Source of the DNA: a virus
Taxonomy: Duplodnaviria; Caudoviricetes
DNA length: 64,000 nucleotides
Virus record (IMG/VR): IMGVR_UViG_3300030330_005471
Direction: 5' to 3' (one strand)
Below are positions 33,646-55,151 of this stretch, piece after piece. The notes under the pieces are model-generated. The model saw only the letters and a program-made list of their open reading frames with translations. It did no database searches and was not told where the DNA came from. Numbering within the stretch: the first letter of the stretch is position 1; every line of letters starts with the position of its first letter. The position numbers and the translations under genes are program-made.

Positions 33646-34365
33646 ATGTTTTGGTTTATATTTTTATTTTTCTCTTGCCAAATGTTTTACTATGGTGACG
33701 AAGAAGTTCAGGAACTTGAAGTAACCCAAGTCTCCAGTGGATACAACATTGGTATCACAAAAGCAATAAGTAGTTCGTTAAAAATTCATGCATTTAATAA
33801 CGAACTAGGACACAGCCACGGCTCAGGAAATCTTTTCTATGTTGGCAATCACTTATTTGTTTTAACAGCTTCACATGTTGTTGATAATGCTGACAACATA
33901 TTACTAGAAGAGACCAATGGAAATATGCTGGCAGCAAAAGTAATTTACGAAAGTACTCAAAAAGATATTGCTATTCTCTTGCCATACGGAGAGTTTACGG
34001 AAGCTAAACCGACCGGGTATGTTAGAAACAAAAGTCGAGACATATTGGCAAAAAAACTACACTACTATGGCTATCCTGAGAATCTAGATGGTTTCTTGGC
34101 CACTGGTTTCGTTAGCCAGTCAGATTACTCAAAGATCCTAATGCAATCGTATGCTTGGATGGGGTGCTCTGGTTCTGTGGTCTTTGATTCTGCTGGTAGG
34201 ACGGTGGGGATCGTTCACGCTATTTTAATCTTGGCGGAGCCTGTCACAGGGTTACCATCTGCTATTGAAAGTGTCGTTGTTGTTAACAGAGTTTACGACT
34301 TGGAGAGGAATTTTATTAGGGAGCGTTTAGTCGATGCAAAAGCTAAAGATAGGAACTCTGATTAA
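33646..34365 (+). CDS. Trypsin-like serine protease, putative lipoprotein
   Basis: LTASHVV, DIAIL, GCSGSVV triad motifs; MFWFIFLFFSC. Confidence 0.85.
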   Translation: MFWFIFLFFSCQMFYYGDEEVQELEVTQVSSGYNIGITKAISSSLKIHAFNNELGHSHGSGNLFYVGNHLFVLTASHVVDNADNILLEETNGNMLAAKVIYESTQKDIAILLPYGEFTEAKPTGYVRNKSRDILAKKLHYYGYPENLDGFLATGFVSQSDYSKILMQSYAWMGCSGSVVFDSAGRTVGIVHAILILAEPVTGLPSAIESVVVVNRVYDLERNFIRERLVDAKAKDRNSD

Positions 34366-34687
34366 AGATAACGATAAGTTGGGAGTCGTAACAAAAGTAA
34401 TTGAAATGGGCACCTTAGATGTTTCCGTTGACATCATCAACTGGAGAGCTAACTATGAAATACATTATGTAGATGGCATAGTATCAATCTTAGGATGCAA
34501 AACTGTTGAGAGATTGATCAAAGAAAACAAAATTGAAATTATATACGAGCCTACTACCCCCCTACCCCCCTCCTCCTCTTCTCAAGATATCTTGCGTGAG
34601 TACATGCACATGCAGGAAGAAAAAAGCAAAAACAAGAAAGGTCGGAGGAAGAAGTGTGCAATCGAAAGAACAAAAAAAGACCAATGA
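34334..34687 (+). CDS. SH3/KOW-like family protein
   Basis: LKIGTLIKD..LGVV. Confidence 0.6.
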   Translation: MQKLKIGTLIKDNDKLGVVTKVIEMGTLDVSVDIINWRANYEIHYVDGIVSILGCKTVERLIKENKIEIIYEPTTPLPPSSSSQDILREYMHMQEEKSKNKKGRRKKCAIERTKKDQ

Positions 34688-34982
34688 GCTCATAAACCCC
34701 AACTGGACAAAGAAGCAAAAGTTGTTGTACTTTCTTTGGCTAGATGATCAGATTATGACCTATTGGTCTAGATATTTAGATTTAAAACATAATGAACCAG
34801 AAGATGAAATCTGGAGTAAAGAATACATAAGAAAGCTTGATGACTGCTTAATAGTGATTGATCACTTTGAAGCATATCAAAAACAAATAACAGATGAATT
34901 CACATACGAACAGATAGATCAGTTTGTTAGAGAGAATCCAGAGATATGTAAAAACTTTAGTTTTTTTCGCTTTTTTTCTTGA
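34656..34982 (+). CDS. Hypothetical protein
   Basis: GTG start after GGAGG. Confidence 0.5.
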   Translation: MQSKEQKKTNELINPNWTKKQKLLYFLWLDDQIMTYWSRYLDLKHNEPEDEIWSKEYIRKLDDCLIVIDHFEAYQKQITDEFTYEQIDQFVRENPEICKNFSFFRFFS

Positions 34983-35073
34983 CAACTTTGGTGTTTTGTG
35001 TTATATTATCTGTATCAAAAGCTCGCAAAGGTTGTTGAGAAAAATTATTTTTTTTGAAAAAAACTTCAAAAAT

Positions 35074-35149
35074 TTAATTGACATTTCGATGCACAGGGCA
35101 TTAATTGACATTTCGATGGGGGATTTATGAAATTAATTGACATTTCGAT
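35074..35149 (+). repeat. Three copies of 17-bp TTAATTGACATTTCGAT
   Basis: 35074, 35101, 35133; further copies at 51626, 51652 and 52911. Confidence 0.92.
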
Positions 35150-35410
35150 AGGAGACTTGGTAACGCATTTGAGCCACGATCTTGGGATCGGACTCGTTAC
35201 CGAGGTGAGAATGGATGTGCCAACAGGAGCATACAAGTGTATTTGGTCTAAAGCACCGTTTATGGAGCTGTTTATCTGTGGTTCATCGCTGAAAATTCTC
35301 TCTTGAATTATAAGGAACACATGTGCGAGAGTTCCAAACGGACATTTTTTGTCCTTTACAATATTCCCACCTGTGATATATTATTAGTAACATTCAACAG
35401 GAGGTGAATA

Positions 35411-35599
35411 ATGTTTAAAGTTGGTGACTTAGTACGGTGGCATGAAAAACTGTACATTGTAACACTTATTGATCCTAGATTTATTAGAGTCATGAGTGTT
35501 CATGATGGAGAATCTACAAGTGCTTTTCCACCCAACTGGCTTACTAAAGTCGAAACGGACAATTTCTGTCCTTTACAATCTTCATCAGACTCATTATAA
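35411..35599 (+). CDS. Array minigene MFKVGDLV
   Basis: GGAGGT RBS; family motif. Confidence 0.7.
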   Translation: MFKVGDLVRWHEKLYIVTLIDPRFIRVMSVHDGESTSAFPPNWLTKVETDNFCPLQSSSDSL

Positions 35600-35711
35600 T
35601 AAATGTATAAAGCAACGATGATGAAAAAAATAAAGTTGGACATTTTTTGACCTTTACAAATTAACATAACCTGTTATATTATATCTGTCAAATTAATTTT
35701 AGGAGAAATCT

Positions 35712-35900
35712 ATGGAAATTGGTAAATTATATAAGGTAATACGCAACGGACACACCTATCCACAAGTAGGTGATGTGATAATGTATGTACAGGGTCTTTA
35801 TAGAGGAGACATGCGTAGTGTATATTTCACAGGTCTGAATCTGAGAACTATGAAACAACACCATTATAAATATGAGGATGTGGAGGTATTATGCGAATAG
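35712..35900 (+). CDS. Array minigene ending VEVLCE
   Basis: AGGAG RBS; junction motif. Confidence 0.7.
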   Translation: MEIGKLYKVIRNGHTYPQVGDVIMYVQGLYRGDMRSVYFTGLNLRTMKQHHYKYEDVEVLCE

Positions 35901-36079
35901 GATCATTAGTAAAATGCAAGTGGCTTGACAATACCCATTTTGGTATAGTTGAGAAATGTACCTATGATAAAGGTTGCCGTTATTGGCGAGTCCATTGGTT
36001 TGGTGATGAATTCCAAAATGGAGTTTTTTGGCCACAAACACTTGAAGATGAAGAAGATTTGGAGGTAATATGCGAGTAG
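35891..36079 (+). CDS. Array minigene MRIGSLV...LEVICE
   Basis: Family motifs. Confidence 0.75.
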   Translation: MRIGSLVKCKWLDNTHFGIVEKCTYDKGCRYWRVHWFGDEFQNGVFWPQTLEDEEDLEVICE

Positions 36080-36231
36080 GTTCATTGGTAAGAGCTAGGC
36101 ATTGGGACGAAAAGGCTATTGGCATTGTCGTGTCCATCAGAAACCAACAAATATGCAAAGTGTTGTTGGTACGCAATCACGACTACAGATTTGATCAACT
36201 TATAAGAGACTTGGAGATAATATGCGAGTAG
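36070..36231 (+). CDS. Array minigene MRVGSLV...LEIICE (53 aa)
   Basis: Manual translation. Confidence 0.7.
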   Translation: MRVGSLVRARHWDEKAIGIVVSIRNQQICKVLLVRNHDYRFDQLIRDLEIICE

Positions 36232-36395
36232 GAACATTAGTGAAAGGTAAAAACATAAATTGGATAGGGGTCATTGTCAAGGTTAACGAAAGAGACTTGT
36301 CATTCTATAAGTCTCACACATACTTGGTGCAGTTTTGTACTGTGAAAAGGCAACAATGGTGTAATAGCCAAGAAATGGAGGTAATATGCGAATAG
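36222..36395 (+). CDS. Array minigene MRVGTLV...MEVICE (57 aa)
   Basis: Manual translation. Confidence 0.7.
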   Translation: MRVGTLVKGKNINWIGVIVKVNERDLSFYKSHTYLVQFCTVKRQQWCNSQEMEVICE

Positions 36396-36625
36396 GAGAC
36401 TTAGTAATGATAGGCGATCAGACCCTCATTATCGTAGCAAACAAGTGGAGTGTCGCTCAGAACGAATGGTATTGGGCAATTGCTCCTGTGGACGATCCAA
36501 GTGATGGAACTTGGCTACCCGAAGATGTTGTTAGCCATGCGTGGAGAGATTATATATGGTGGACAAAAAATGTCCTCGACAATAATATAAGGAATGGTTA
36601 TATTGTAGATAACAAAGGAGAATAA
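36386..36625 (+). CDS. Array minigene MRIGDLV
   Basis: Family motif; reads through a promoter box. Confidence 0.65.
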   Translation: MRIGDLVMIGDQTLIIVANKWSVAQNEWYWAIAPVDDPSDGTWLPEDVVSHAWRDYIWWTKNVLDNNIRNGYIVDNKGE

Positions 36626-36626
36626 C

Positions 36627-36815
36627 ATGGTATACAATACAGGAGACATAGTTGTTTTCATCAATGGATGGGGAGAACATGAACTTGGCATAGTCGTAAT
36701 TCAATATGATAACTATGACACAGAGGTTATGTTCGCAGATGGAATACAATCTTTGGTGGATGGTTGGGATGTAAAAGATGGACACTTAATCCCATTGGAG
36801 GAAACATGCAAGTAG
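36627..36815 (+). CDS. Array minigene MVYNTGDIV...LEETCK
   Basis: Family motifs. Confidence 0.7.
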   Translation: MVYNTGDIVVFINGWGEHELGIVVIQYDNYDTEVMFADGIQSLVDGWDVKDGHLIPLEETCK

Positions 36816-37000
36816 GAGACTTAGTAAGATTCAAAAGACATGTGGTAGACATGGTATGCGATGGAGAAACATGGATAGGTCTAGTGGTAGAGTCCTCTAT
36901 TGAACATCAATTCGAAGGAGTGGTGGCTATGATACAATGGATGTGCTACAATACCCCTACTCCCGAATATGTTGATGACTTGGAGGTATTATGCGAATAG
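36806..37000 (+). CDS. Array minigene MQVGDLV...LEVLCE
   Basis: Family motifs. Confidence 0.75.
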   Translation: MQVGDLVRFKRHVVDMVCDGETWIGLVVESSIEHQFEGVVAMIQWMCYNTPTPEYVDDLEVLCE

Positions 37001-37164
37001 GAACATTAGTAGCGTCCTCTTATGAAATAACAGGGAGATTTCACATAGGTGTTATTATAGATGATGATGGAGATAAACATTGGTTGGTTCACTGGCTAAC
37101 AGGAATATTCACAGGCGACATAGAGTCGTATCATGAGAGCGATTTGGAGGTACTATGCGAGTAG
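36991..37164 (+). CDS. Array minigene MRIGTLV...LEVLCE (57 aa)
   Basis: Manual translation. Confidence 0.7.
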   Translation: MRIGTLVASSYEITGRFHIGVIIDDDGDKHWLVHWLTGIFTGDIESYHESDLEVLCE

Positions 37165-37313
37165 GCAATTTAGTATCAATAAGACTCACAGATGATACAA
37201 AACAAATTGGTGTCATAGTGGAGGCAAAAGCAGAGCATTGCAAAGTCCATTGGACTACAGGCAATAGAGGTTGGTATAGAATAGATTATCTTACGGAGGT
37301 AGTATGCAAGTAG
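37155..37313 (+). CDS. Array minigene MRVGNLV...TEVVCK (52 aa)
   Basis: Manual translation. Confidence 0.7.
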   Translation: MRVGNLVSIRLTDDTKQIGVIVEAKAEHCKVHWTTGNRGWYRIDYLTEVVCK

Positions 37314-37519
37314 GAGATTTAGTAAGGATAAAAAAGGCTTGGATAGATATGTACGAGGGCTACGAGGATACTGTAGGGCTAGTGGTGTATGCCGATAGTG
37401 GCTATGGGGGAGAAAGACCTGTGGGATTTCGGAGGATCAGAATTCTACATGAAAACATAAGAGGACAAATCTATTCCGTATTCGCTGAAGAGGTTTTGGA
37501 GGTAGTATGTTCAAAGTAG
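37304..37519 (+). CDS. Array minigene MQVGDLV...LEVVCSK
   Basis: Family motifs. Confidence 0.75.
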   Translation: MQVGDLVRIKKAWIDMYEGYEDTVGLVVYADSGYGGERPVGFRRIRILHENIRGQIYSVFAEEVLEVVCSK

Positions 37520-37764
37520 GTGACTTGGTGAGAATAAAGAAAGAACATGTCGATCATGAGTACCTCAAAGAAATTGCTTGGGATTCGCATTGGACGAAAG
37601 CCCCTCTTCCACCACCCGAAAAAGATTGGCTTGGGTTGGTGATGGGTTACTTAACTGGTGACGATGGGCATGTCATAAAGGACATGATATATATACAATG
37701 GCTGTGGAGTGGTCGCACCGTTTTAGAATACACCGAGCATTTGGAGGTGGTATGCGACAACTAG
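37507..37764 (+). CDS. Array minigene MFKVGDLV...LEVVCDN
   Basis: Family motifs. Confidence 0.75.
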   Translation: MFKVGDLVRIKKEHVDHEYLKEIAWDSHWTKAPLPPPEKDWLGLVMGYLTGDDGHVIKDMIYIQWLWSGRTVLEYTEHLEVVCDN

Positions 37765-37940
37765 TTTACAAGGTTGGAGATCTGATCATCCAAATAAAAA
37801 CAGGTAGGCTCGGACTAATAACCAAGGTGGACGAACTCCAACCTTGGGGTGTTGAGATTCAATGGACAGACAATGGTGTTAAACAAATTATGCACTGGAC
37901 AAATATCGTCCATGAAGGTCTTTATAGAAAACGGACATAA
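37752..37940 (+). CDS. Array minigene MRQLVYKVGDLI...KRT
   Basis: Family motif; stop inside promoter box. Confidence 0.7.
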   Translation: MRQLVYKVGDLIIQIKTGRLGLITKVDELQPWGVEIQWTDNGVKQIMHWTNIVHEGLYRKRT

Positions 37941-38002
37941 TTTGTCCTTTACATATTTTGAGAATAGGGTATATTATAAACATCAAACAAGTGGAGGTCG
38001 AT

Positions 38003-38185
38003 ATGCGAGTAGGTGATTATGTAAGGTTCAACAACAACGAGGGTGACTTGGACGAGACACTTTGGAAGGTTGTTGGTTTCGAGGAAAGAGGTGGTCGTGC
38101 CTTTGTTCTCGTAAAGCACCCCACCGTAGGTGGTAGGTATTCATTCCCTAAAGATGGGGTTGTGGAGGTAATATGCAACAAATAA
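38003..38185 (+). CDS. Array minigene MRVGDYV...VEVICNK
   Basis: Family motifs. Confidence 0.7.
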   Translation: MRVGDYVRFNNNEGDLDETLWKVVGFEERGGRAFVLVKHPTVGGRYSFPKDGVVEVICNK

Positions 38186-38385
38186 AGGGATCGTTAGTGA
38201 GAAAGGGATCGTTAGTCATGTGGAATGTAAAAGGCTCACTCGATTATGGCGAACTAGGTGTGGTTACATCAGTAAAAGAACTTACATTAAACGAAGAATT
38301 TGATGTTGTGTGGGCAGATGGTACTGTGACAGAGTACGATCATAGTCAAATACAACATCAAAATATAAAAGTGGTCAAATTTTGA
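38173..38385 (+). CDS. Array minigene with duplicated KGSLV
   Basis: Family motif; stop inside promoter box. Confidence 0.7.
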   Translation: MQQIKGSLVRKGSLVMWNVKGSLDYGELGVVTSVKELTLNEEFDVVWADGTVTEYDHSQIQHQNIKVVKF

Positions 38386-38441
38386 CCTTTACAAATTTAC
38401 AACAACATATTATATTACATTTACAACAACAGGAGGACAAT

Positions 38442-38747
38442 ATGTTTACATCAATATCACAGATAAAAAAAGCAAACCGAGAGAATGGCTACCATTTTTT
38501 CAGCAAAGACACGATGGGCTTTTTCAAGTCCAAGACCCACAGGGGTGTGTACGGAGGTCGTTATTTCATAACCTCTGAGCAGTTTGTGTCTACTAGTGGG
38601 GAGGTATACCCCCGAATGTATACAATACGCAAGGCTCACTCTGATGGGGCTATCGACACTGTGGATACCTTTCAAAAATTTAAACACTTAGATCAGGCTA
38701 GAGACTATATCAAGTTCGAGATCTTGGGAGAAGAACAATGGGATTAG
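38442..38747 (+). CDS. Conserved phage hypothetical protein (ANRENGYHFFSKDTMGFF...YFITSEQ)
   Basis: AGGAGG RBS after boxed promoter; not an array-family member. Confidence 0.75.
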   Translation: MFTSISQIKKANRENGYHFFSKDTMGFFKSKTHRGVYGGRYFITSEQFVSTSGEVYPRMYTIRKAHSDGAIDTVDTFQKFKHLDQARDYIKFEILGEEQWD

Positions 38748-38884
38748 GGTCACTAGTAAAACATGAAGGTCTTTTACAAGAGATTGGCATTATCACAAAG
38801 ATCTGTGATGAATTGGCAACAGTTTTCTTCCCCGAAATGAATACGAAGGTACTGGTGTACCTTGATGACTTGGAGGCATTATGA
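38738..38884 (+). CDS. Array minigene MGLGSLV...DDLEAL (48 aa)
   Basis: Manual translation. Confidence 0.65.
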   Translation: MGLGSLVKHEGLLQEIGIITKICDELATVFFPEMNTKVLVYLDDLEAL

Positions 38885-39084
38885 CAAAATTAAATATTAG
38901 GATAGGTTCTCTGTTACAATGGCAAGGAATAACGCAGTGTCGTGGAGAACTGGGAATAGTTATTGGGTTACTAAATGGCAATGGGTATGATGGCTTTGTT
39001 GTACATTGGAGTGTCGATGGTGAAATTGTGGACTATGTAAACGATGAAGCCATAAGTAACCTCATGGAGGTACTATGCAGGTAG
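38881..39084 (+). CDS. Array minigene IRIGSLL...MEVLCR
   Basis: Family motifs. Confidence 0.7.
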   Translation: MTKLNIRIGSLLQWQGITQCRGELGIVIGLLNGNGYDGFVVHWSVDGEIVDYVNDEAISNLMEVLCR

Positions 39085-39248
39085 GTAGTTTAATAAAATG
39101 GACAGAGGCAGATGGACATATCTATTACGGGATTGTCACCAAGGTCGAAGGACAGAAAACTTTCATCCTGTGGGCTGATGGACTTGAAATTGACTACTGT
39201 TTGACAAGCGATATAATGGACAGCCAAATGGAGGTAGTATGCGAGTAG
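39075..39248 (+). CDS. Array minigene MQVGSLI...MEVVCE (57 aa)
   Basis: Manual translation. Confidence 0.7.
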   Translation: MQVGSLIKWTEADGHIYYGIVTKVEGQKTFILWADGLEIDYCLTSDIMDSQMEVVCE

Positions 39249-39439
39249 GCGATCTGATAGAATATACTGAAAATGACGAAACATTCATCGGTCTTGTGGT
39301 CAAGGTCGGTCTTGCCTCAAATATGGGAAAAACAGCTATCAAGATCCAATGGTGTTTTCATGGTGAAGATAAAGATTTCTTCGATGAAACATCGTGGCTA
39401 TGCACAGACGAGGTATGTTTGATCTCAAAACGGACATAA
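39239..39439 (+). CDS. Array minigene MRVGDLI...KRT
   Basis: Family motif; stop inside promoter box. Confidence 0.7.
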   Translation: MRVGDLIEYTENDETFIGLVVKVGLASNMGKTAIKIQWCFHGEDKDFFDETSWLCTDEVCLISKRT

Positions 39440-39480
39440 TTTGTCCTTTACAATAATTCTCATTAGGTTATAATGTTTAT

Positions 39481-39645
39481 ATGAAGATAAAAGTTGGAAA
39501 GATAGTTAAATACAGAGACAATATGCCTCCGAATCTTTGGATAGTACTGACGAAACTCTATGGTGGTCTATGGGAGGTAGCCGAGGTACAGTGTCTCACT
39601 AACAGGAAAATTGCACACACAAAAGACATAAAGGTGGTAAAATGA
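39481..39645 (+). CDS. Array minigene MKIKVGKIV (54 aa), probably leaderless
   Basis: ATG 6 nt after TATAAT. Confidence 0.6.
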   Translation: MKIKVGKIVKYRDNMPPNLWIVLTKLYGGLWEVAEVQCLTNRKIAHTKDIKVVK

Positions 39646-39803
39646 AAACAGGTACATTGGTAAAAGTCTATCACAAAGGTGTTGGTGTTATAGTGGATAG
39701 AGGTATCCACCATAATGGCGATTGGAAATATTTAATATTATTTATCAGCGATGGATATAGAGCATGGTGGACAGAAAACCATTTGGAGGTAATATGCGAA
39801 TAG
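39642..39803 (+). CDS. Array minigene MKTGTLV...LEVICE (53 aa)
   Basis: Manual translation. Confidence 0.7.
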   Translation: MKTGTLVKVYHKGVGVIVDRGIHHNGDWKYLILFISDGYRAWWTENHLEVICE

Positions 39804-39949
39804 GAACATTGGTAACAACAGGTGGTTGGCTAGGAATTGTCGTGGCAATATATGATGATGATATTACATCTATTATGTATGAGATTCACTTTGAGGATGG
39901 AGACAGAGATGTTTTCTATATAGATGACTTGGAGGTATTATGCGAGTAG
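39794..39949 (+). CDS. Array minigene MRIGTLV...LEVLCE
   Basis: Family motifs. Confidence 0.75.
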   Translation: MRIGTLVTTGGWLGIVVAIYDDDITSIMYEIHFEDGDRDVFYIDDLEVLCE

Positions 39950-40125
39950 GGACATTGGTTAAAAGTAAGTGGGCAACGAATATCATAGGTATTCTTTTGG
40001 AAAAACTCACCCTCGGTGATGATGTAGAGTGGGAAGAAGAGTGTTGGAAAGTCTATTGGATTGGCAATGGAGCAATCTTCGACCAAACTCATGAAGAAGA
40101 AGAGGACTTGGAGGTACTATGTTAG
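39940..40125 (+). CDS. Array minigene MRVGTLV...LEVLC
   Basis: Family motifs; close paralogue of 35891. Confidence 0.75.
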   Translation: MRVGTLVKSKWATNIIGILLEKLTLGDDVEWEEECWKVYWIGNGAIFDQTHEEEEDLEVLC

Positions 40126-40276
40126 AACACTTGTTAAACTGTCATGGTGAATGGACTTATCTTTTATCCTTGATAGACTTGTTCCCCACACTACGGTATT
40201 ATCTAAACGGACAAATTCTGTCCTTTACAAAAACACACAACGAGTTAGATTGTAAATATGAAACAACGGAGGAAAT

Positions 40277-41672
40277 ATGAGACTACTAAATTGGACTGAG
40301 GCTTTTATGGAAGGCATGGACTTTATAAAAAAGGTATGGATTGGTATGTACCGAGAGGAAAACGAGTGGAGGGGTACACTGGAAGAATTCTATCCTTCTC
40401 TTGCGATAGCAAACTTTAGTCAACAAAAACTAGAGGACTACCTAAAGGAGGCGATAGAGGGTAGGGCTTGGCTACCAAAGGGTATGCGAGTGTGCTATGA
40501 CGAGAATGAACAAATACTTATAACTGTAACCAAAGAGGTGTAACATGGCTTATGTACAGAATTGGAATCCCGATAACAAGTTATCTGAGAAGGAGGCAAT
40601 AGCCTTCCTCACTAGGGTAGTACCCGATATAACAGACAATGCTTTCCATATACGGAAAGAGTCTGACGATGGTGGCTCTGTCATTTCAGTATACATAGAG
40701 ATGAATGAAGATGGATCTAGAGGCTATCACAACAAACCAGTAAAATATGATGAACTAAAAGGGTGGCGAGTCGTATGGCTCACCTGTCCTCCACAATATA
40801 CGAACAAATGGAGAAAAAGATGATGAATCCAATGGAAATACTTAGATACGAACCGAAAAAGGGCGATGTTATCATCTATAATGATGGCTCATACACAGAG
40901 GTTTTACAAGACTTACAACAAGGTAGCCCATTTATCAAGGGCAAGTTTCACGCACTTGGTGTCGAGCCAAGCGAGATCAACATACACACTCCTCTTATAC
41001 GAACCCAAATGATACAAGGCAAATGCCACCTGTGTCGCAAGGAGGTTGAAGATGTACAAGATAATTCAGATACAACCTCAGAGTAACATGATCGTGGCTC
41101 ATATCAAACTCAATGACAAGTACTACTGTGTAGGGGATGATGGGTACTCCGTTATGATCTTCAAAGGTGACGAGGGTGGCAACATTGTTTCGTGGATAGA
41201 ACTAGCAAAATTTGACAATAAAATGCTGAAAGATGTTGTGCGAAACAAGTCATCCTTTCGGACTTGTTTGCGAATCGGACAAAAAATGTCCTAGACAAAT
41301 TATCCATAACGCATTATATTACTAACATCATTCAACAACGAGGTTAATATGAAATGGAAACGAAACAAGGGAACATTCAGAGTCTATGGTGGTCATGGTT
41401 GGACAAACTATGAGGGTTCACACTATGTTTGTTATCCTTTTATGATCAATCGATCTCTCAACAATGAAAGCAGATGGGCTTTGACCCATATCGCTTGTGG
41501 CAGAGAGGTCGGAAACTTTAGAACACTGGCTGTTGCTAAAGAGTGTGCTTTAGCATTGCAACACTATAAACATTGGTTCTTACCCACAGAAGAACTTGTA
41601 TTAAAGTCTATGGTTGATAGTGGAGAGAAACAAGAGATCATGAATGTTGTCCAAGACCACAGAGTAAAATAA
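40277..41672 (+). other. Cluster of five small hypothetical genes (40277-40543, 40545-40823, 40820-41086, 41052-41294, 41349-41672)
   Basis: RBS-preceded, tightly packed ORFs behind boxed promoters. Confidence 0.7.
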
Positions 41673-41748
41673 AAACGGACATTTTTTGTCCTTTACATAT
41701 TTTGAGAATAAGATATATTATATTTACACAACAACATAGGAGACTATT

Positions 41749-42090
41749 ATGAAGATAAAAGTATGCAGACACTGTGAGGACGAATTCGATTGTCGCTCCA
41801 CTCGAAAGGCTACCGTAGGGGGGTACATAGATGAATGTCCCGACTGTGTGGAAGAACTGGGAACAGAAACCCATGTCAAATACCAAGGAGTCATATCGGG
41901 AGAGGGTAAACAAGCCTGTATTCAGATATTGTCCTTCGAATCCAAAGCAGACGCTGAGGAATACAAGCGAAGATGGGAACGCAATAGTGGTTGGAACAAC
42001 CGAAGATCGGGTGGTCTAAACGATAGTTCTATCAAGTTCAAGAAGGTCGGTGAGACACGAGGGAACGCAAACCATAAAGGCAAAGGCTAA
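41749..42090 (+). CDS. C4 zinc-finger hypothetical protein
   Basis: CRHC...CPDC. Confidence 0.65.
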   Translation: MKIKVCRHCEDEFDCRSTRKATVGGYIDECPDCVEELGTETHVKYQGVISGEGKQACIQILSFESKADAEEYKRRWERNSGWNNRRSGGLNDSSIKFKKVGETRGNANHKGKG

Positions 42091-42101
42091 CAGGAGACAC
42101 T

Positions 42102-42299
42102 ATGCAAATAAAAGTAGGAGACTTGGTTTATAGAAAGCAACATTCGTATTTAAACATAAGGCACAATGACGAAATATGGCTTGTGATCGGCAAGGCTCAG
42201 AGGTGTGGCTTGGGCGAATTCCACCCTTGGATACAGATAGAGAATATTCACAACGGTAATAGGATTTCTTGTAAAGAACCTATGCTGATGAAAATATAA
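42102..42299 (+). CDS. SH3/KOW-like family minigene MQIKVGDLV
   Basis: Family motif; AGGAG RBS. Confidence 0.7.
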   Translation: MQIKVGDLVYRKQHSYLNIRHNDEIWLVIGKAQRCGLGEFHPWIQIENIHNGNRISCKEPMLMKI

Positions 42300-42375
42300 A
42301 ACGGACATTTTTTGTCCTTTACAAACTTACAACAACATATTATAATACTTATACATTCAACAACGGAGGTCAATT

Positions 42376-46033: not shown

Positions 46034-47039
46034 ATGAAATTCAAAACAGTGGTTATCATTGAAACAGATGACGAGGGCTTTCTAACCCTTAAGGCTCTGT
46101 TACCCAATGATGGGATTGTTTGGACAAGAATTGTCGGGCAGAACAAGGTCGCAGTGAGACTTAAAGACGATATAGACATAGAATGGGTTGAGAAACAACT
46201 AAACTCATTACATAGAACACTAAACATCTGAGGTGCATGATGGCACAAGAATGGAAATACAGAGAACACAAGGGAAAGCAAGGAAGGTTCCGAATAGGCG
46301 ATCTCGTACAACTCTCAGCCTATGGTAAGAGTACTGATCAGAACACCAACCCACACTTTGATGGAAACGAACTTGGTCTTATCATTGAGATAGGAGGAAA
46401 CACTAGATTCGGTGGTGATATTCAAAAATACCCCATTGTAGTGCAGTGGATCAATGTCCCAAAGGGAACCAATGTTGCCAAGAGGTTCTTCTTCAGAGAG
46501 TTAAAACTAAAACGGACATAATTTGTCCTTTACAATATTCAACCAACATATTATATTATAAACATCTTCAACAACAAGGAGTCTATCATGGACACTAAAG
46601 ACAACAACAACATCACGATACAACTATCAGTATCAGATGAACTATTAAACAAGGTTCTCCGAGCCTTAGTAACACCACCCCCAAGCCCTATGGGTGGAGG
46701 TATGCCTATCCCTATGAGTTTGTTATCGGGTTTACTAGGTCAAGCCCCACCATCTGACGACGAAAAGTCTGAGGAAAAGCCAACCGTAGGTTTCAAAATT
46801 AAAGGAGCGAAATAATGACTATCATATCAACAAAGCAACTGAGCAATGGTTTAGGTCAAACTGTCATTACAACACTTGTGGTGCATAATGGAAACTACTT
46901 TGTAGTATCCGAGAATCCTAGAGAGACTCTGATATTCCCTAGCAACAGCAAAGGGGAACACAAGTTCCTTGAGGTAGGATCGGGTTTCGATACAGCAGAT
47001 TGCCTCAACCAAATCGAAAACGGACAAATTATGTCCTAG
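46034..47039 (+). other. Four small genes (46034-46231, 46237-46521 GDLV family, 46588-46815, 46815-47039) between the VWA and AAA genes
   Basis: Two boxed-promoter units. Confidence 0.7.
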
Positions 47040-47113
47040 ACTTTATTTTCAAACCTAGTTATATTATAAACATCATTCAAACGATAACTTAACAACAAAC
47101 AATGGAGACTATT

Positions 47114-48169
47114 ATGTCTATTGATTACAAAACCCTATTCACCATCCTTCCCCATGTCTTTGAGGCGAGATTCCCTGTCCTCTTACGAGGTCGGCATGGT
47201 ATCGGTAAGTCCACAGTAGTATACCAACAAGCCAAAGCAATGGGTTTGCCTGTGGTAGAAAGACGAGCCTCACAGATGACCGAAGGTGATCTACTTGGTC
47301 TACCCAAGATCGATGGTAATGTCACAGCTTGGCTTGCACCCGAATGGCTTGACAAGGCTTGCAAAGAACCAGTTATCTTGTTCCTTGACGAGGTTGATCG
47401 TGCTACCCTAGAGGTACGACAGGGTATCTTCGAATTGTGTGACTCTCGTAAGATCGCAGGTCACAAACTCCATCCCGACACACTTATCTTTGCTTGTGTC
47501 AATGGTGGTAAGCATGGTGCAGAGTATCAAGTCAACGAGTTCGATCCAGCCGAACTTGATCGCTACACTGTCTTTGATGTAGAGCCTACCGTAGAGGACT
47601 GGCTTGACTGGGCTAAAGGCAATGTCATTGACGAGATATGGGATTTCATCAACCACAATCACCAACATCTCGAACACAAGGATACCTTCGAGCCTAACAA
47701 GATCTATCCTTCAAGACGATCTTGGGAAAGACTCTCAGACGCATTGCAAAGTGTCGGTGAGGTAAAGCATAGTCCTACCCTATACCACCTTGCTCATTCT
47801 TTTATCGGCTTTGAGGGTGCTATGGCTCTGAATGACTATATCAAGAACTACTCTAAAGTTGTGACTCCCGAACAAATTCTTGACGAGGGTAAGGTAGACT
47901 TGACTGAAAAGTTCAAGATCAACGACCATAACAGTCTTATTGAAAAGTTCAAGGCTAAAGAGTGCTTTGATACGGAGTTATCTGACAGTCAGTTACAGAA
48001 TCTCGCTGAATACTTTGTGACACTCCCATCTGAGATCGCTATGACCTTGTGGCAAGCGATGGGATCGGGCAAGGAGGCAACCAAGAATGTCGCTAGGTTG
48101 CATGGTTTACAGACTAAAACTGGCTCTGTGCAAGACTTTATCGTCAGTATCCTAACAGCAGGTCAATAG
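47114..48169 (+). CDS. MoxR-like/AAA_5 ATPase
   Basis: GRHGIGKS, GDLLGLP, LFLDEVDRA, FDPAELDRY, PSRRSWE. Confidence 0.9.
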   Translation: MSIDYKTLFTILPHVFEARFPVLLRGRHGIGKSTVVYQQAKAMGLPVVERRASQMTEGDLLGLPKIDGNVTAWLAPEWLDKACKEPVILFLDEVDRATLEVRQGIFELCDSRKIAGHKLHPDTLIFACVNGGKHGAEYQVNEFDPAELDRYTVFDVEPTVEDWLDWAKGNVIDEIWDFINHNHQHLEHKDTFEPNKIYPSRRSWERLSDALQSVGEVKHSPTLYHLAHSFIGFEGAMALNDYIKNYSKVVTPEQILDEGKVDLTEKFKINDHNSLIEKFKAKECFDTELSDSQLQNLAEYFVTLPSEIAMTLWQAMGSGKEATKNVARLHGLQTKTGSVQDFIVSILTAGQ

Positions 48170-48179
48170 ACCTACTGAT

Positions 48180-48210
48180 CCTCCACCATGACAGTGTAGT
48201 CTGGTGGAGG
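48180..48210 (+). terminator. Stem-loop after AAA gene
   Basis: CCTCCACCA...TGGTGGAGG inverted repeat. Confidence 0.5.
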
Positions 48211-48293
48211 AACCTACTCGGACATTTTTTGTCCTTTACAAATTATTCTGAACCTATTATATTATAAACATCAACAACACAAGAGGTGATCAG

Positions 48294-51148
48294 ATGGAAC
48301 AAGATAATATACCCGATGTAGGAGATTTAGTCACAGTATTTAGATCAATCCCTAACGCAATAAACCGTATGGGATTGGTCATAAAGGTTGAGTACAGTAG
48401 TCAAGTACCCATATTCACTGTACAATTTCCAGATGGAACTGTTCGCACCTTGGGAAGATTGTGGATCGAAAAGATTAAAAAATAAAAACGGACATTTTTT
48501 GTCCTTTACAAATTCTTTTAAACCTATTATATTACTAGTATAACCAACAACAAGGAGTTATCCATGAGAATACGAAACAACCAAGGTGCTACAATGACCC
48601 CCAAGTGTGCGAACCTTATCCGAGACTTGAACAAACTAGTTCGTGAAGGTCTTTCCATTGAAGAGGCAGAGGAATACCTTAAACTTGAAAATTGGCGATG
48701 TGATCAAGGCTATGCACCTCACAAAGGCGATTGGAAAAAGGCTAAAAAGCGAATCCTCCAAGTAGCAGAGTTCAGAAAGACAGGTGCTACTACCCTCAAG
48801 GGTGGGTGGGGTAAGCGATGAATATCGGAGACATAATGCTATACAACAATCGAGAAAACCCTCGCCTAAACGATACCTTAGTTCTCATAATGGGAAACAA
48901 TGGTCGTATCCACAGGAAAGTAATGTTCTTGAAAGATGGATTTATAACAGAGAACTGTTGGGTAGGTTACTTATTACCAATAGGAGATAACCATGTCAGT
49001 AGGTGAAATTTATTTGTGGAATGATGGAGTGTTGGATCACTTGGTCATGATCGTACCATCGGGGAACGGAGTAGGGAATTGGGTTGGGTGGTGTTCAGTT
49101 CAGTTCATCAGTGGAGGACGAAAATTTCAAGTCCAACACTACCAACTTAAACCTTTGGAGAACAGATGAAAGAAGAATTCAAGATAGGCGATCTCGTTGA
49201 GGTCAAGATTCTCAGAGATCATCCCGAAATTGGAATAGTGGTAGGCATTGAAGATCCCGAAAGAACCAACAATGGTCTATATGTATTGATCGAGGGTTGG
49301 ACTCCTAGTGGAGGCATGGTTAAGGCTTGGCTACCATTGAACAGAGTAAAAAAAATAAAAACGGACAAAATTTGACCTTTACAATTTAAACAGACCTTGA
49401 TATAATACTAATACATTCAACAACAGGAGAACATTATGTTAAAAAGAAGTAGGTACTCACAACAATATAAAACCATTCAACAGGCAAGGGCTTGGGCTTA
49501 TGAACAAGATTTTAATGATGTATGGTATCTTATCCACAACAGAGAGAAGAACAGATACCAGTTGGTAAATGATGGTCGGCTTTACTACCTACAACATTGT
49601 TGGGATCTTGACTTTGAAATTATTGAAACTTGGGAATAGATATGAAGGTAGGTGATTTGGTGTTGCTCGACATAGGATATGGCAACCCATACGGTATGAA
49701 AAAGCCACCCGAATTAGCGATCATCAGAGGTATCAACACAGACTATAGCCCAACTCGATACTACCTAACAGTGGTGTCAACAGGAAAACGCAAGTGGGCA
49801 ACTCAAAATTTCATCGAACCAGTGGAGGAAACATGCAAGTAGGAGATTTAGTGTGGTCATTGTCAGATGACATCAAAGGCTCGAAGAAACGATTGGCGAT
49901 CATCCTCGCCTTAGACTATGACCATTGGAATCCATATTTCATCCAGTTAGTCGCTTGTGGGAGACAGGGAAAAACAGCAAGAAAGTATCTCGAACCATTG
50001 GACAGAGACTAAACGGACAAAAAATGTCCTTTACAAATCCCAACCACCCTGTTATAATATAAACATCATTCAAACGAACCAAGGAGTTCAACATGACTTT
50101 AGTAGACCTTCAAGAACTATTCAGCGATTCACTCTCTCTAACACGAGAGGAGATCAGCAAACTCGATAAACAAGCCCTCGTGGAAAATGCTCATGGTGAT
50201 CCTAAACTCCCTCGGAGAGAACGAAACATTCAAGCGATACGAAACAATCTCTTGTTGAGTATGATCGAGTGGAACGAGATAGACCACGACAGCCTACTTG
50301 ATCGTTGGTATTTCATAACTAGCAGAGCGATTGAACTGGGAGATTTCTGTCCCGACTTGGCAAAGGTACATATGTTGGGTGTAGAGCATGTTTTATCTCT
50401 TCGGTCATAATTTGTCCTTTACATTCTGAGACAACAGGTTATATTACTGATATGAACAACGGAGAAAACATGGAACCATTTTTAGATATAGGGACTCTCG
50501 TAATATACGAACTGTGGCGACCGAACATAGAAGATATGGAATTGGTTGTGGGGTTGATAACCAAGGTCAACCGAAAGATATGGAATAACCACAGAATCCT
50601 TATTCCAAAGTACAATATAGAAAGAATGGAGAACAGGTGCAAGATATACATCTTCACAGAGGAGAACTGGGACAAACTATACAAGGAGAGAGTAGCATGG
50701 AAAAACTAAAGATCGGAGATCTTGTCAAGTATCCTAGAGGCATTAACGATGATAGCAACGGAATTTTGTGTATTGTGATAGAGATAAAAGGAAACACAGG
50801 ACAATACATAGTACAGAGCATAGCCACAGGTGAGCATTATGTAGCGATTGATCGTTGGCTCACACACCCACCCCTATACCCGAACCAACGGAGACAACAA
50901 TGAAAAATAATGTAGACTTTATTGAACCAACAACCAAGTACACCATAGGGGATCTAGTACAGTACCCCATGTCCAAAGCAGTAGAAGAAGGAAAAGTTAC
51001 ACCAACCCTATGTCTCGTTGTAGAGATACGGAATGGATACTATAGGCTTCAGTGTACTAGGACTCGGTTGTTTCATAACACCACAGAACAGTGGATAGCC
51101 CTACCCACCTACTACCCTACCCCTATGGGGTCACTAAAAACTCCCTAG
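48294..51148 (+). other. Second cluster of minigenes, mostly GDLV family (48294, 48818, 49166, 49642, 49833, 50470, 50697, 50900) plus 48564, 49436 and 50093
   Basis: Family motifs; boxed promoters. Confidence 0.75.
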
Positions 51149-51272
51149 ATGGTCATTAAGGGCTTGTATGCGTACCTTGGAGTATATGTCCGTATTCGTT
51201 TGTACTCGCCTGTATATACTGTATCAAAGTCACCCTACGAGTGTAACTATCACCCCGAAAAGGAAAACGACA

Positions 51273-51491
51273 ATGAAAAACGAAAATACCCCGAAAAACT
51301 CACAGCAAACCCTATTTCCTCGCATTACAAGCGTATCACAGGCGATCATGTACATAGAGGATTACCACAGTGACGAGTTCTTTGTTGAGTCCTTCCAGTA
51401 CCTCATAGACACAGGCGTTGTATGGCAGTTGCAAGGTTGGTACGGTCGCACAGCCATAGACTTGATCAATACAGGCGTATGCACACGATAA
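51273..51491 (+). CDS. Conserved phage hypothetical protein (FQYLIDTG..WQLQGWYGR)
   Basis: Recognisable phage motif. Confidence 0.7.
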   Translation: MKNENTPKNSQQTLFPRITSVSQAIMYIEDYHSDEFFVESFQYLIDTGVVWQLQGWYGRTAIDLINTGVCTR

Positions 51492-51625
51492 AGTCTTGAC
51501 AGACTTTCAAGCGACTCCTAGAGAGAATCGACTAAAGTTCTCGTTTAAATGGTTTAAACCGTAGGTTTAAATGGTATAAAAGTCTTGACATTTGGTATAT
51601 TTATATACCAATTGGCTTAAATAAT

Positions 51626-51668
51626 TTAATTGACATTTCGATGTTTCAGATTTAATTGACATTTCGAT
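51626..51668 (+). repeat. Two copies of 17-bp TTAATTGACATTTCGAT
   Basis: Identical to the 35074 series. Confidence 0.9.
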
Positions 51669-51780
51669 ATAGACTGTTTTCCGAATCGGTCAAATTCTGT
51701 CCGAAAACGGAATAAAAAAGATTTGACAGATCAGCCCAAACGAATTACATTACCTTTACATTCAAACCAACGAGGTAAAT

Positions 51781-52023
51781 ATGAAAATGAATAAAGGCGA
51801 TCTAGTTCAAGTAAACATTGGATACGGAGCCGTTGAGGGCGATCCTCTCAAGTGCGAGCTAAAGAAGGCTTGGGGCGTGATCACAGAGATCCGTAGAGAA
51901 GGCGAACGCCTTATGGTTCACTTTATCGAAGATGATCGTGAATACTTGATAAAAAGATTCAACATAAAGGTGGTCGTAAACAAGAACGGTCAAATTCTGT
52001 CCGAAACTAATATTGACAAATAA
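51781..52023 (+). CDS. GDLV-family minigene
   Basis: MKMNKGDLVQV. Confidence 0.7.
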   Translation: MKMNKGDLVQVNIGYGAVEGDPLKCELKKAWGVITEIRREGERLMVHFIEDDREYLIKRFNIKVVVNKNGQILSETNIDK

Positions 52024-52069
52024 ACCTAAACCGATTATAATATATATACATTCAAACAACGAGGTCACT

Positions 52070-52381
52070 ATGACAAACGAAGAACTTATTAAAGCATTTA
52101 TTAACAAGACTCACGAGTACGGAAAGAACGGCACAGGTGCGTTATCTTTCGTAGGAAACAGGATCTATTCTTACAACCTCCTTATAGGAGAATACATAGA
52201 TCGCTCTGAAGAGGGTTTTATCGGACTCCTTATCCACGACCACATGGCAACAGGATTGGGATTCATCTCGGCTACAACCTCTCAGCATGTCTCTCTCCTT
52301 AAGAGACTCACCGAGTATCACCCTAGAAGGATCAACTCTACCGAGACATCAATCTTTGGTGCACCGTATCACAGACAATAA
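52070..52381 (+). CDS. Hypothetical protein (IYSYNLLIG...SATTSQHV)
   Basis: GAGGT RBS. Confidence 0.7.
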   Translation: MTNEELIKAFINKTHEYGKNGTGALSFVGNRIYSYNLLIGEYIDRSEEGFIGLLIHDHMATGLGFISATTSQHVSLLKRLTEYHPRRINSTETSIFGAPYHRQ

Positions 52382-52428
52382 CCCTACTACCCTACTATAC
52401 CCCCTTAACCCATACCATGAGGTAAATT

Positions 52429-52599
52429 ATGAAAAACATCCTTATACCCTTCTTCTTCTCTCAACTCCCTTTCGCTCTCCTTCTCTTCGCAATTGGTTGC
52501 TTTAAAGCAAATGCTGAAACCGAAGAGGCTCCAATCGCCACTGTGACAGTGGTAGACTCCGAGATCGAGATCATTGACGCTACAACCGTAAACCAGTAG
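52429..52599 (+). CDS. Small lipoprotein (MKNILIP...LLLFAIGC)
   Basis: Classical signal peptide with lipobox; manual translation. Confidence 0.6.
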   Translation: MKNILIPFFFSQLPFALLLFAIGCFKANAETEEAPIATVTVVDSEIEIIDATTVNQ

Positions 52600-52608
52600 G
52601 AGACACTT

Positions 52609-52845
52609 ATGAATTACGATACAGACAACACACTTTCAGCAACCACACGAGAGGCTAAGCAACTAGCAAACGAGATCCGACAAAGAGTATTTGTCCTCTA
52701 TTACCCTGCCGATGACGAATTCGACTATAGCGAGTTCAAGCCCGACCGAGACGATATGACTGTTTCAGTCATGAGAGAGGTCAAGCCCGATCCTATCCAA
52801 TATGAGGAAGGTTGCAACGGACTCAAGTACAATACCGTAAGGTAG
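52609..52845 (+). CDS. Hypothetical protein
   Basis: AGGAG RBS. Confidence 0.65.
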   Translation: MNYDTDNTLSATTREAKQLANEIRQRVFVLYYPADDEFDYSEFKPDRDDMTVSVMREVKPDPIQYEEGCNGLKYNTVR

Positions 52846-52867
52846 GCATGGGCCCCCACGTTTAAAC

Positions 52868-52908
52868 AGCCGACAATGGAGGATTGTCGGTTGGTTTTTC
52901 ATTTTTTT
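52868..52908 (+). terminator. Rho-independent terminator
   Basis: AGCCGACAAT-GGAGG-ATTGTCGGTT followed by T-rich tract. Confidence 0.7.
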
Positions 52909-53047
52909 AATTAATTGACATTTCGATGTCACATGCATGTGTGATCGAGCTTCCTACGGAAGTCGGACAAATTCTGTCCGTTTTACGGTTGCTCGATCAA
53001 TCCGAATTGGTTATAATATATATATGAAAACAACAAAGGAGATTCAT

Positions 53048-53641
53048 ATGAAAGAATTTGTCATCACAATTAACCCCTTCCGAGCCCCTTTTATGAGAGA
53101 ACGAATGATCCCCGTTCAGACCGTATGCAAGTATCGCAACGGATCCAAGTACGAGTATAGCGAATATGCGTACGGTAAGCCCCATTGTGGTCGTGTCTAC
53201 CGATGGACTGACACACCCGAATCACTTGCCGAAAAAGAGCGTCATATCCCTGCTTTTATGGAAAGAGTAGAGAGGACATATGAGAAGGCTAGAACACGAT
53301 TCAGTAAGACCTATCAAGGGATCTCCCACGAGGACGAGGTTGTTAGAACATACGCACCTTATCCACAGTGCCCACAAGCGATCAAGTCCGTTATGTCCGA
53401 TAGATGGAACCAGTACATAGCCGATAGACAATTTCTGTCCAACATTGTGTCTCGTATGAGGATCCAATTCGGACATTTAATGACCAGTGCTCAGACTGGC
53501 GAGTATGACAGGATAGGCGACTCGCTTTATCGAATTCATTCTATGTATATGACTCTATCGGCTATGTGTCGACCCGATCACCATAGAGTAGAATACAGGA
53601 AGATCAAGGGAGTTGACCCTCTACTAGCGAATAGAAGATAG
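53048..53641 (+). CDS. Hypothetical protein
   Basis: AAGGAG RBS before ATG 53048. Confidence 0.7.
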   Translation: MKEFVITINPFRAPFMRERMIPVQTVCKYRNGSKYEYSEYAYGKPHCGRVYRWTDTPESLAEKERHIPAFMERVERTYEKARTRFSKTYQGISHEDEVVRTYAPYPQCPQAIKSVMSDRWNQYIADRQFLSNIVSRMRIQFGHLMTSAQTGEYDRIGDSLYRIHSMYMTLSAMCRPDHHRVEYRKIKGVDPLLANRR

Positions 53642-53909
53642 TCGGTCAATTTCTGTCCGTTTCACAGTTGCACACTCTGTTCGAATTTGTTATATTATAT
53701 ATATGAAAACAACCAAGGAGGTTTTTCATGCTACAGTTCGCGATAATTTTCACTTACACGATCCTGATCGTTCCTTCCTTCTGTGTGGTGTGGAGAGTAA
53801 TCCACGAAGAATATTTTTAAACTGGACAAATTCTGTCCGTTTCCAACTTGCACACTTTAACCAAATCGATTATAATATATATATGAAAACAACAAAGGAG
53901 TATTTCATT

Positions 53910-54206
53910 ATGTCACAATATCATATGACCAGTCAACAACGCAAAGCCCTCAACGCCTCGATCAATAGACAGATCGCTCAATCATACGAGAGACTTATGG
54001 ATCTCTGTAACGAGAGATTTGACGAGAACCACGAGGATCCCAAACTCGCTGCTTTAAACAAGCGATTGAATGAGGGTGCTGTTGCTATCGAAGATCTTAT
54101 CCTCTCTATATGGGATGACGAGATCGACCAAAAAGATGATCAACTCTCTAAAGAAGAGATCGCTCTTATCAAAGAAGAAATCGCTGACGAGTTTGGCGAA
54201 GAATAA
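53910..54206 (+). CDS. Hypothetical protein
   Basis: AAGGAG RBS before ATG 53910. Confidence 0.65.
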   Translation: MSQYHMTSQQRKALNASINRQIAQSYERLMDLCNERFDENHEDPKLAALNKRLNEGAVAIEDLILSIWDDEIDQKDDQLSKEEIALIKEEIADEFGEE

Positions 54207-54259
54207 ACAACCCTTTTCAACTAACTACTACAATAACCCTATCCAAAGGATAAACTAAT

Positions 54260-54580
54260 ATGTCTAATTTCTCTATCTATGAATCTCCGATCTATCGTGG
54301 CTCTTACTATGTCGTCAACAACTCCACTGGTGAGCGTGTCGACTGTCATAACCTTGCAACAGCCCTTCAACACATTAGAGATCGCGAAAACCCTCAGAAC
54401 CCTGTCACTCACGAGCCTAAGCAAGTAACACTTGAAGAGCATTTCGGTTGCTTAACTGGTGGTATGGGCTACACTCCTGCGATCACTTGGACTTTAACAG
54501 GTCGTGTTGAACGCGTTCACAACTGGGCTACAGCCAAAGAGATCGCTCGAACCTTTCCTAAAAAAACTTGGTTACAATAA
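54260..54580 (+). CDS. Hypothetical protein
   Basis: AAGGA RBS. Confidence 0.65.
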   Translation: MSNFSIYESPIYRGSYYVVNNSTGERVDCHNLATALQHIRDRENPQNPVTHEPKQVTLEEHFGCLTGGMGYTPAITWTLTGRVERVHNWATAKEIARTFPKKTWLQ

Positions 54581-54618
54581 CCTACTACCCTATCACCCCT
54601 TCACCCTTGGAGAATACC

Positions 54619-54798
54619 ATGGAAACATTACCCACTACTATCGATTCGATTAACCTCGCTCGATCCTTTACCCTTCACAATATTATTAAACAACTAGATG
54701 AAATGAAATCAATTGATGGATATTCTCCACTAGAGATCTCACTACTTGAAGAATTATTAAATGAGATCATTGACTCTATCACACCACTTGAGGAGTAG
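54619..54798 (+). CDS. Hypothetical protein
   Basis: GGAG RBS. Confidence 0.55.
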   Translation: METLPTTIDSINLARSFTLHNIIKQLDEMKSIDGYSPLEISLLEELLNEIIDSITPLEE

Positions 54799-55151
54799 CA
54801 TGCCGATTGAACCTTTTATTTATTGCTTTATCACCCTGTTTTTCATTAACACTTTATTCTTATTTTTAATGTTCATTAATTTTGTTGATGATTAAAACGG
54901 GGGGATCCCCTCCCCCTCCCACTGATGGAACCTCGAAATAAGTACTTAGAACCTTTGTTTTCGGCCGGGCCGGCCTGATACGTTGAATATACGCACGGAA
55001 ATTTTCCAGATTTAGAACTTATGCCACTTGGCATAAAACGGTTTTAACACATTTCATAAAAAGTTTGTACCAAGTGGACTAAAAAAAACACCCAGAAAAA
55101 ATTTCTCAAATAGGAAGGTAATCCACTATTTATACCAAGAGGTATAAACTT

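Follow-up and report, generated by a model that had tools for sequence, protein, structure and literature searches.

A block of 21 kb, in the 64,000-nucleotide stretch of DNA analysed here (the window; IMG/VR virus record IMGVR_UViG_3300030330_005471, Duplodnaviria, Caudoviricetes), is cleared of about ten short words of the restriction type. The window comes from a large virulent phage of ~190 kb, uncultured, and the block overlies what would be its early zone, a run of small genes behind promoters of the host type. That a restriction-type selection is confined to this zone is strongly supported, because the missing words are either short palindromes or absent together with their reverse complements, because shuffled sequences fail to reproduce the loss, because the single-base neighbours of the words are enriched, and because the sets of missing words differ between relatives. 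We consider, with a probability of about 0.6, that restriction sites are avoided only in the DNA that lies exposed until an early anti-restriction function comes into play. The initial annotation of this DNA had drawn attention to the lack of CCGG in the block; what it had observed is confirmed as real, very strong, and general in the phage group.

By count, no CCGG lies between 34013 and 54965, as the manual scan had it, and 68 are found in the remaining 43 kb; the site was rightly called common there, even if one of the examples given, 3684, is in fact at 3685. All 100 CCG of the block are followed by A or T (CCGA 73, CCGT 27), again as annotated; CCGC is absent and GCGG occurs once, at 34234. 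The rarity announced for ACGT and GGCC also holds, with one ACGT (52858) and four GGCC (34098, 36030, 52851, 54963), as does the absence of CCAGG and CCTGG from the whole window (0 in all 64 kb). In the 20.7 kb of the void itself only five core sites are left: GGCC at 36030, GGCC and ACGT at 52851/52858, GCNGC at 54048 and CGNCG at 46758. The left edge of the void is staggered, the loss of SCGS, ACGT and GGCC ending at 34.0-34.2 kb and that of AGCT, CCWGR and GAAGY at 35.1-35.3 kb, where the promoters begin. On the right, all words share one sharp edge, which falls at the end of the early transcription units, inside a 353-bp spacer.

The expectation was drawn from 300 synonymous-codon shuffles carried out inside the block's own genes, so that the proteins and the codon usage of the block were preserved. 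The initial annotation had envisaged that CCGG and CCGC could prove to be at their expected frequency, or that codon usage alone could explain the depletion; the computed count in the block is 0 for both words, and none of the shuffles comes near the observed values, so that codon usage is no explanation of the void. Thus CCGG is found 0 times for a shuffle mean of 18.2 (minimum 8), ACGT once for 33.4 (minimum 22), CCGC or GCGG once for 33.2 (minimum 18), GCGC 0 times for 15.6 (minimum 6), GGCC 3 times, in the count used for this test, for 24.2 (minimum 12), GGWCC 0 times for 14.5 and GCNGC once for 9.1. The depletion of AGCT is partial (17 for a mean of 59.0, minimum 43). Submitted to the identical test, the left flank shows no depletion of CCGG (54 against 39.7), and strong depletion is limited there to GCGC (4 against 30.7) and CCWGG (0 against 25.7). 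CCWGG is avoided across the window, with 0 copies also against 12.9 expected in the block and 8.2 in the right flank; the window-wide totals are 0 against ~47 for CCWGG and 5 against ~53 for GCGC. The other words depleted in the zone are at normal frequency outside it. As CCWGG and GCGC are avoided everywhere and the flanks are otherwise not depleted, these data indicate two tiers of restriction pressure; the window-wide avoidance of CCWGG by itself indicates that the DNA of this phage is under such pressure.

A greedy search through degenerate words of up to six bases, with shuffle-based expectation, returned SCGS (1 against 67 expected), CCWGR (5 against 43), GAAGY (4.5 against 37), GGNCC (2 against 24), CGNCG (1 against 20) and TGATT (8 against 25), and also recovered AGCT and ACGT; CCNGG is likewise depleted in the zone. 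Significance was judged by the shuffle ranges, since the log-probabilities of the greedy search count both strands and are therefore overstated. The non-palindromic words are lost in both orientations, ACTTC (1 against 17.6) as GAAGT (3 against 30.7), CCAGA (4 against 19.1) as TCTGG (3 against 17.6), and for 16 of the 18 strongly depleted non-palindromic 5-mers the reverse complement is depleted too. As the genes all lie on one strand, this loss of asymmetric words from both strands indicates a constraint on double-stranded DNA rather than on messenger RNA or codon pairs. Besides, words that differ from the missing ones by a single base are enriched, ACTTG/CAAGT (90 against 44), CCCGA/TCGGG (42 against 19.5) and AGCC/GGCT (139 against 94), which is the trace expected from a selection removing sites. 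GATC is enriched rather than avoided in the zone (140 against 99), and the phage has a Dam-like methylase. A CpG deamination bias is ruled out, its expected products CCAG and CTGG being depleted as well.

The void (34235-54962) coincides, as had been proposed, with the zone of boxed promoters (boxes 35337-53855). Each promoter of the array is directly preceded by a 15-bp palindrome, GG(A/T)CA-N5-TG(T/A)CC, abutting the -35 element, and we take this GGACA-N5-TGTCC box to fit the Fis consensus (G..YA.....TR..C). Taken with the sigma-70 promoters, these Fis-like boxes point to a marine gammaproteobacterium as the probable host. The zone holds ~66 small co-directional genes on the + strand, with a median of 67 amino acids, among which an array of SH3-like minigenes. 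Where relatives carry the box, it stays within the early zone: the complete genome G001 has 20 such sites, all but one at 6.8-24.9 kb.

Relatives of this phage are numerous in IMG/VR, including apparently complete contigs of 184-196 kb. We sampled 56 loci around the DUF2201 gene of the zone and 80 around the polymerase gene, and searched 52 of the early-zone loci and 70 of the polymerase loci for a zone-limited void, i.e. a long word-free stretch with a normal density of the word elsewhere in the locus. Such a void is present in 31 of the 52 early-zone loci and in 0 of the 70 polymerase loci; the latter display whole-locus avoidance only (CCWGG, ACGT, AGCT, GATC, CGCG), and in several relatives ACGT, AGCT, GATC or CGCG is absent from the examined loci as a whole. 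The words lost in the zone are partly shared and partly specific. The closest relative (L081) has lost core words identical to those of the window. Three others (L083-L085) have lost SCGS (observed/expected 0/61, 0/34 and 1/55) as well as GGNCC and CCNGG; they keep ACGT (68/64 in L083), and L082, conversely, has lost ACGT (0/38) and keeps SCGS (81/83). CTAG is lost in the zones of L088 and L093. In the complete genomes G001 (191.5 kb) and G005 (195.7 kb) the void occurs once, over the early zone, and nowhere else. The zone of G001 has lost CTAG (0/47), GGNCC (0/54), CCNGG (0/53) and most GATC (10/80), and the CTAG-free stretch extends from 0.2 to 28.4 kb (62 expected; 192 sites elsewhere); that of G005 has lost AATT (0/70), which is absent from 85.3 to 98.4 kb (70 expected; 1726 sites elsewhere). 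In both genomes every gene, or every 4-kb bin, codes on one strand and the cumulative GC skew is monotonic, and a fully one-directional genome of ~190 kb is unusual. The early zone of G005 (84-100 kb) has a guanine-cytosine (GC) content of 0.47-0.52, against 0.35-0.40 around it, and is without GGACA box promoters.

Could the void be a by-product of composition or ancestry, through the mosaic import of a module from a phage with genome-wide avoidance, or through an odd codon or amino-acid usage together with repeated minigenes? Early modules are indeed mosaic and fast-evolving, and there are word biases specific to the zone, as well as, in G005, a mean GC content of 0.50 in the zone against 0.37 around. 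Nevertheless, with proteins and codon usage preserved, the shuffles still lead one to expect 15-60 copies of every missing word, at least 31 loci have a void in the same zone but for different words, and the avoidance of CCWGG is common to zone and flanks. We regard this explanation, already largely refuted by the shuffles and the locus survey, as very improbable. The strand symmetry leaves even less room for an avoidance at the RNA level, by which early messenger RNAs would be free of the words cut by an endoribonuclease, of the host or of toxin type: that the zone genes all lie on one strand would suit it, but the words are palindromic or equally lost in both orientations, and are missing from promoters and spacers too. 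This last idea can hardly be retained.

The block may then be read as the early zone of a large virulent phage, transcribed by the host RNA polymerase, from which selection would have removed the sites of many host restriction-modification enzymes, mostly type II enzymes with palindromes of 4 or 5 bp, the rest of the genome keeping them. The most likely reason would be timing. The zone, ~10% of the genome, would have to be in the cell, and intact, before any phage protein is made; host nucleases would gain access to the remaining DNA only later, once restriction has been disabled, or the DNA shielded, by a product of the zone. The simplest route would be a polar and staged entry with the zone leading, either in two steps like T5 or driven by transcription like T7-like phages. 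It is plausible that the zone is injected first, one of the two options of the initial annotation, the other being that it is otherwise unprotected. Coding on one strand, complete in G001 and G005 and found for 127 of the 132 called genes of the window (+ strand), is what a polar programme of entry and expression would need. The analysis establishes the voids, with their strand symmetry, their sharp right edge and their recurrence for other words in relatives; from these we infer restriction enzymes as the selecting agent, a staged entry, and a protecting function encoded in the zone.

Several points weigh against a leading segment of this kind. The terminase of G001 is of the T4 type, with 32% identity to a cyanophage gp17 (its best matches are at 47% in a Flavobacterium phage and 44% in a Microcystis phage). 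T4-type terminases usually go with headful packaging and random ends, which leaves no fixed leading segment. It has also been argued that the avoidance of sites in a leading region should not hold for headful packagers (PMC12455610). The contigs, which continue through both borders of the zone, revealed neither a physical end nor a terminal repeat nor an injection-stop signal; IMG/VR labels them 'linear' and without end repeats, they break at varying map positions, and the end of G001 overlaps its own position 217-276. The spacer at 54799-55151 has no DnaA box, such boxes being scattered across the window. A tblastn search of the window and G001 with 12 pre-early proteins of T5 as queries found no homologue of A1, A2 or dmp, its best match having an E-value of 0.04 over 26 residues, and no phage RNA polymerase was found, with no match to PF00562; weak matches to PF00940 were followed as a lead to such a polymerase and rejected, as they fall inside the terminase gene. 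Searches of Pfam and PHROGs with 20 further proteins of the zone and its borders, beyond DUF2201 and AAA_5, found no anti-restriction family, and a scan for very acidic proteins resembling DNA mimics returned only the small SH3-like minigenes. Lastly no avoided word can be assigned to an enzyme. We nevertheless give more weight to the zone-limited voids, to the one-directional genome and to the sharp distal edge than to a 32% similarity of the terminase, and it is on this balance that we infer the mechanism of entry.

The random ends that fit a T4-type terminase would be better accommodated if the whole genome entered at once and only the early zone were accessible to nucleases, being opened by the host RNA polymerase while the rest is condensed or coated by co-injected proteins. 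That the void coincides almost exactly with the host-promoter zone, and that the genes past the zone share an N-terminal leader, go in the same direction. On the other hand the void starts ~750 bp ahead of the first promoter and spans promoters, genes and spacers alike, and a DNA-coating protein was not identified. In a weaker form of this scheme, the cuts made elsewhere would be repaired once the early proteins are made, leaving selection on the zone only; the flanks hold hundreds of sites for the ~10 words, and the repair of so many cuts at a single infection is implausible. Altogether we hold simultaneous entry to be unlikely. The selecting enzymes might also come from the phage itself, the zone avoiding the sites of its own or recruited early nucleases or methylases, e.g. 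site-specific destroyers of host DNA. This idea has been published for T5 (Davison, for A1), and the zone would be precisely the DNA present while such an enzyme acts. But these sites are present in the remaining genome, which would be cut if it did not enter later, so that a staged entry would still be required; moreover close relatives avoid differing sets of up to ten words, which would imply a rapid turnover of many phage nucleases, and the Pfam and PHROGs scans recognised no nuclease family in the zone. We find an origin of the selection in the phage's own enzymes decidedly improbable. Exposure of the zone to host restriction ahead of the rest thus accounts best, in our opinion, for the void. 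A more specific version, which we put forward tentatively and rather doubt in its details, is that a widespread marine family of uncultured phages, of ~190 kb and with a T4-type terminase, has a two-stage delivery or exposure of its genome, a fixed early zone of 14-21 kb with ~25 host promoters coming first, and that the words missing from the zone of each lineage record the restriction enzymes of its host population.

Modification of the DNA was considered for the sites tolerated outside the zone. G001 has no match to the methyltransferase families PF00145, PF02086 and PF01555 (C5, D12, N4/N6), and in the complete genomes of five relatives there is no match to DpdA/TGT (7-deazaguanine) or to a ThyA-type hydroxymethylase. 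As such enzymes have no match, a known base modification seems no explanation for these sites. Another relative, G003, encodes one C5 and two D12 methyltransferases, yet its zone is without GATC, which indicates that the possession of methylases does not predict the voids. The link between D12 genes and GATC is not simple: GATC is avoided in the zone of G001, without D12 gene, and in that of G003, with two, and is enriched in the window, with one.

The features of the window are collected in the table below. The motif TTAATTGACATTTCGAT, with three copies at 35074-35150, has three more at 51626, 51652 and 52911, so that its six copies flank the box-promoter zone, three on each side; they may be operator sites or a second class of promoters. 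At the right border, GGCCGGGCCGGCC and the ACGT at 54980 are the first avoided sites met past the void, and a CTATTTATA motif lies at 55126, upstream of the first post-zone gene. The region right after the zone (54901-54983) consists of a C-run, CCCCTCCCCCT, followed by a GC-rich cluster built of sites that the zone avoids (GGCCGGGCCGGCC, ACGT), and an equal order of terminator, C-run and SCGS cluster is found at 19706-19835 of L083. A structured element at this border (54799-55151) was looked for and rejected, the fold being no better than that of shuffled sequence. The post-zone genes at 55152, 55768, 56340 and 57093 share the N-terminal leader MKLT(K/S)K.L..., and their position is syntenic in G001 (about 27180). 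C-rich CCTACTACCC elements at 34550, 51108, 52383 and 54581 lie directly past stop codons; they may be Rho-utilisation or processing sites. Words enriched in the zone include CCCC, CCTA and CTAC, in part because of these elements.

Table. Features of the window that relate to the void, with their coordinates
Feature	Position	Strand	Remarks
SCGS-free zone (CCGG, CCGC/GCGG, GCGC)	34235..54962		ACGT, GGCC/GGNCC, CCNGG, GCNGC and CGNCG almost absent too
~25 sigma-70-type early promoters (TTTACA-16/17-TATAAT or TATATT)	35337..53855	+	each directly preceded by a 15-bp box
First sigma-70-like promoter of the zone (TTGACA-17-TATATT)	34979..35007	+	~750 bp inside the left edge of the void
Three TTAATTGACATTTCGAT copies	35074..35150	+	three more on the other side of the box zone
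DUF2201 metallopeptidase/VWA-like gene	44520..45896	+	inside the zone; anchor for retrieving the zones of relatives
AAA_5 (MoxR/CobS-like) ATPase gene	47102..48169	+	inside the zone
Non-coding right border, 353 bp	54799..55151		C-run at 54901, GGCCGGGCCGGCC at 54963-54975, ACGT at 54980
First post-zone gene, MKLT... leader family	55152..55610	+	same-leader gene follows the zone in G001
D12-class (Dam-like) N6-adenine DNA methyltransferase	21352..22497	+	outside the zone

Besides the D12-class DNA methyltransferase, the window encodes a DnaB-like helicase, a class II ribonucleotide reductase, a DnaE-type polymerase (17206-20652), a GroEL-like chaperonin, ClpP, ThyX and an adenosine deaminase; the gene at 5239-5916 has no Pfam match at E <= 0.001. 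A near-identity search of the zone against cultured phages gave no match, and the polymerase is below 30% identity to that of every cultured phage.

Site-avoidance surveys have mostly treated genomes as wholes, and whole-genome statistics would dilute or miss signals limited to a zone. Experiments have established, for T5-like phages and in 2025 for T7-like phages, that the selection by restriction is strongest on whichever DNA is exposed first. What is new is a very clear and extreme footprint of this known principle, over 21 kb, ~10 words and sharp borders, in a group without a cultured member. Sequence alone would here predict which tenth of a ~190-kb genome must act unprotected, a staged or polar exposure of the genome in the group despite its T4-type terminase, and, from the words missing in each lineage, the recognition sequences of the enzymes of its hosts. 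If the two-stage reading is true, zone-limited voids would become a general marker, requiring nothing but contigs, of the leading DNA and of the host defence repertoires of uncultured phages.

Among known systems, the host-takeover module of Bacillus phage SPO1 is alike in its dense tiny early genes and its many strong host-type promoters; it differs in lying in the terminal redundancy and in a DNA that carries hydroxymethyluracil, and zone-limited avoidance of sites has, to our knowledge, not been described in SPO1. The genome-wide avoidance of palindromes by phages is shared here by CCWGG and GCGC, avoided over the whole window, but the second tier, confined to one zone with normal frequencies elsewhere, departs from it. 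In the T7-like murciaviruses of Marinomonas, a type I motif was found by experiment in 2025 to matter only in the region injected first, and the authors propose a sub-genomic selection concentrated on first-injected DNA (PMC12455610). The present phage resembles them in its co-directional genes, in ~25 host-type promoters all in one direction in a variable early region, and in restriction motifs that matter, judging from their distribution, only in that region. By contrast its genome is larger by a factor of about five, the searches revealed no phage RNA polymerase, the promoters are ~25 versus ~3, the terminase is nearest, among studied phages, to the T4-like gp17 and not of the T7 type, and a multi-word footprint in the sequence stands against one type I motif established by experiment.

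The closest parallel is with T5 and BF23, for which type I and type II restriction, as well as the clustered regularly interspaced short palindromic repeat (CRISPR) defence, are effective only through targets in the first-step-transfer DNA; the precedent cited by the initial annotation is thus real and published (PMC10644984; bioRxiv 10.1101/866236). In both cases small host-takeover genes, preceded by promoters of the host type, occupy ~8-10% of the genome, and sites are tolerated outside this segment and not inside, here as a signature in the sequence only. The differences are that the A1, A2 and dmp homologues and the DnaA-box stop signal of T5 were not found here, that the terminase, read from G001, is of the T4 and not the T5 type, and that transcription is one-directional where T5 has two divergent units. 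Applied to T5 itself (L160, 1-50000), the comparison of the first-step-transfer DNA with the next 40 kb gives observed/expected values of 1/7.4 versus 40/41.5 for CCWGG, 2/17 versus 53/60 for CCNGG and 1/17.6 versus 22/60 for GGNCC; GGWCC is depleted in the first-step-transfer DNA too, 6-bp palindromes are at 0.64 of expectation versus 0.84 in the next 40 kb, and 4-bp palindromes are not purged. Here ~10 words are purged over 21 kb, 4-bp palindromes included. The T5 segment is thus a weaker version of the pattern, and the present case is the same kind of signal, far broader.

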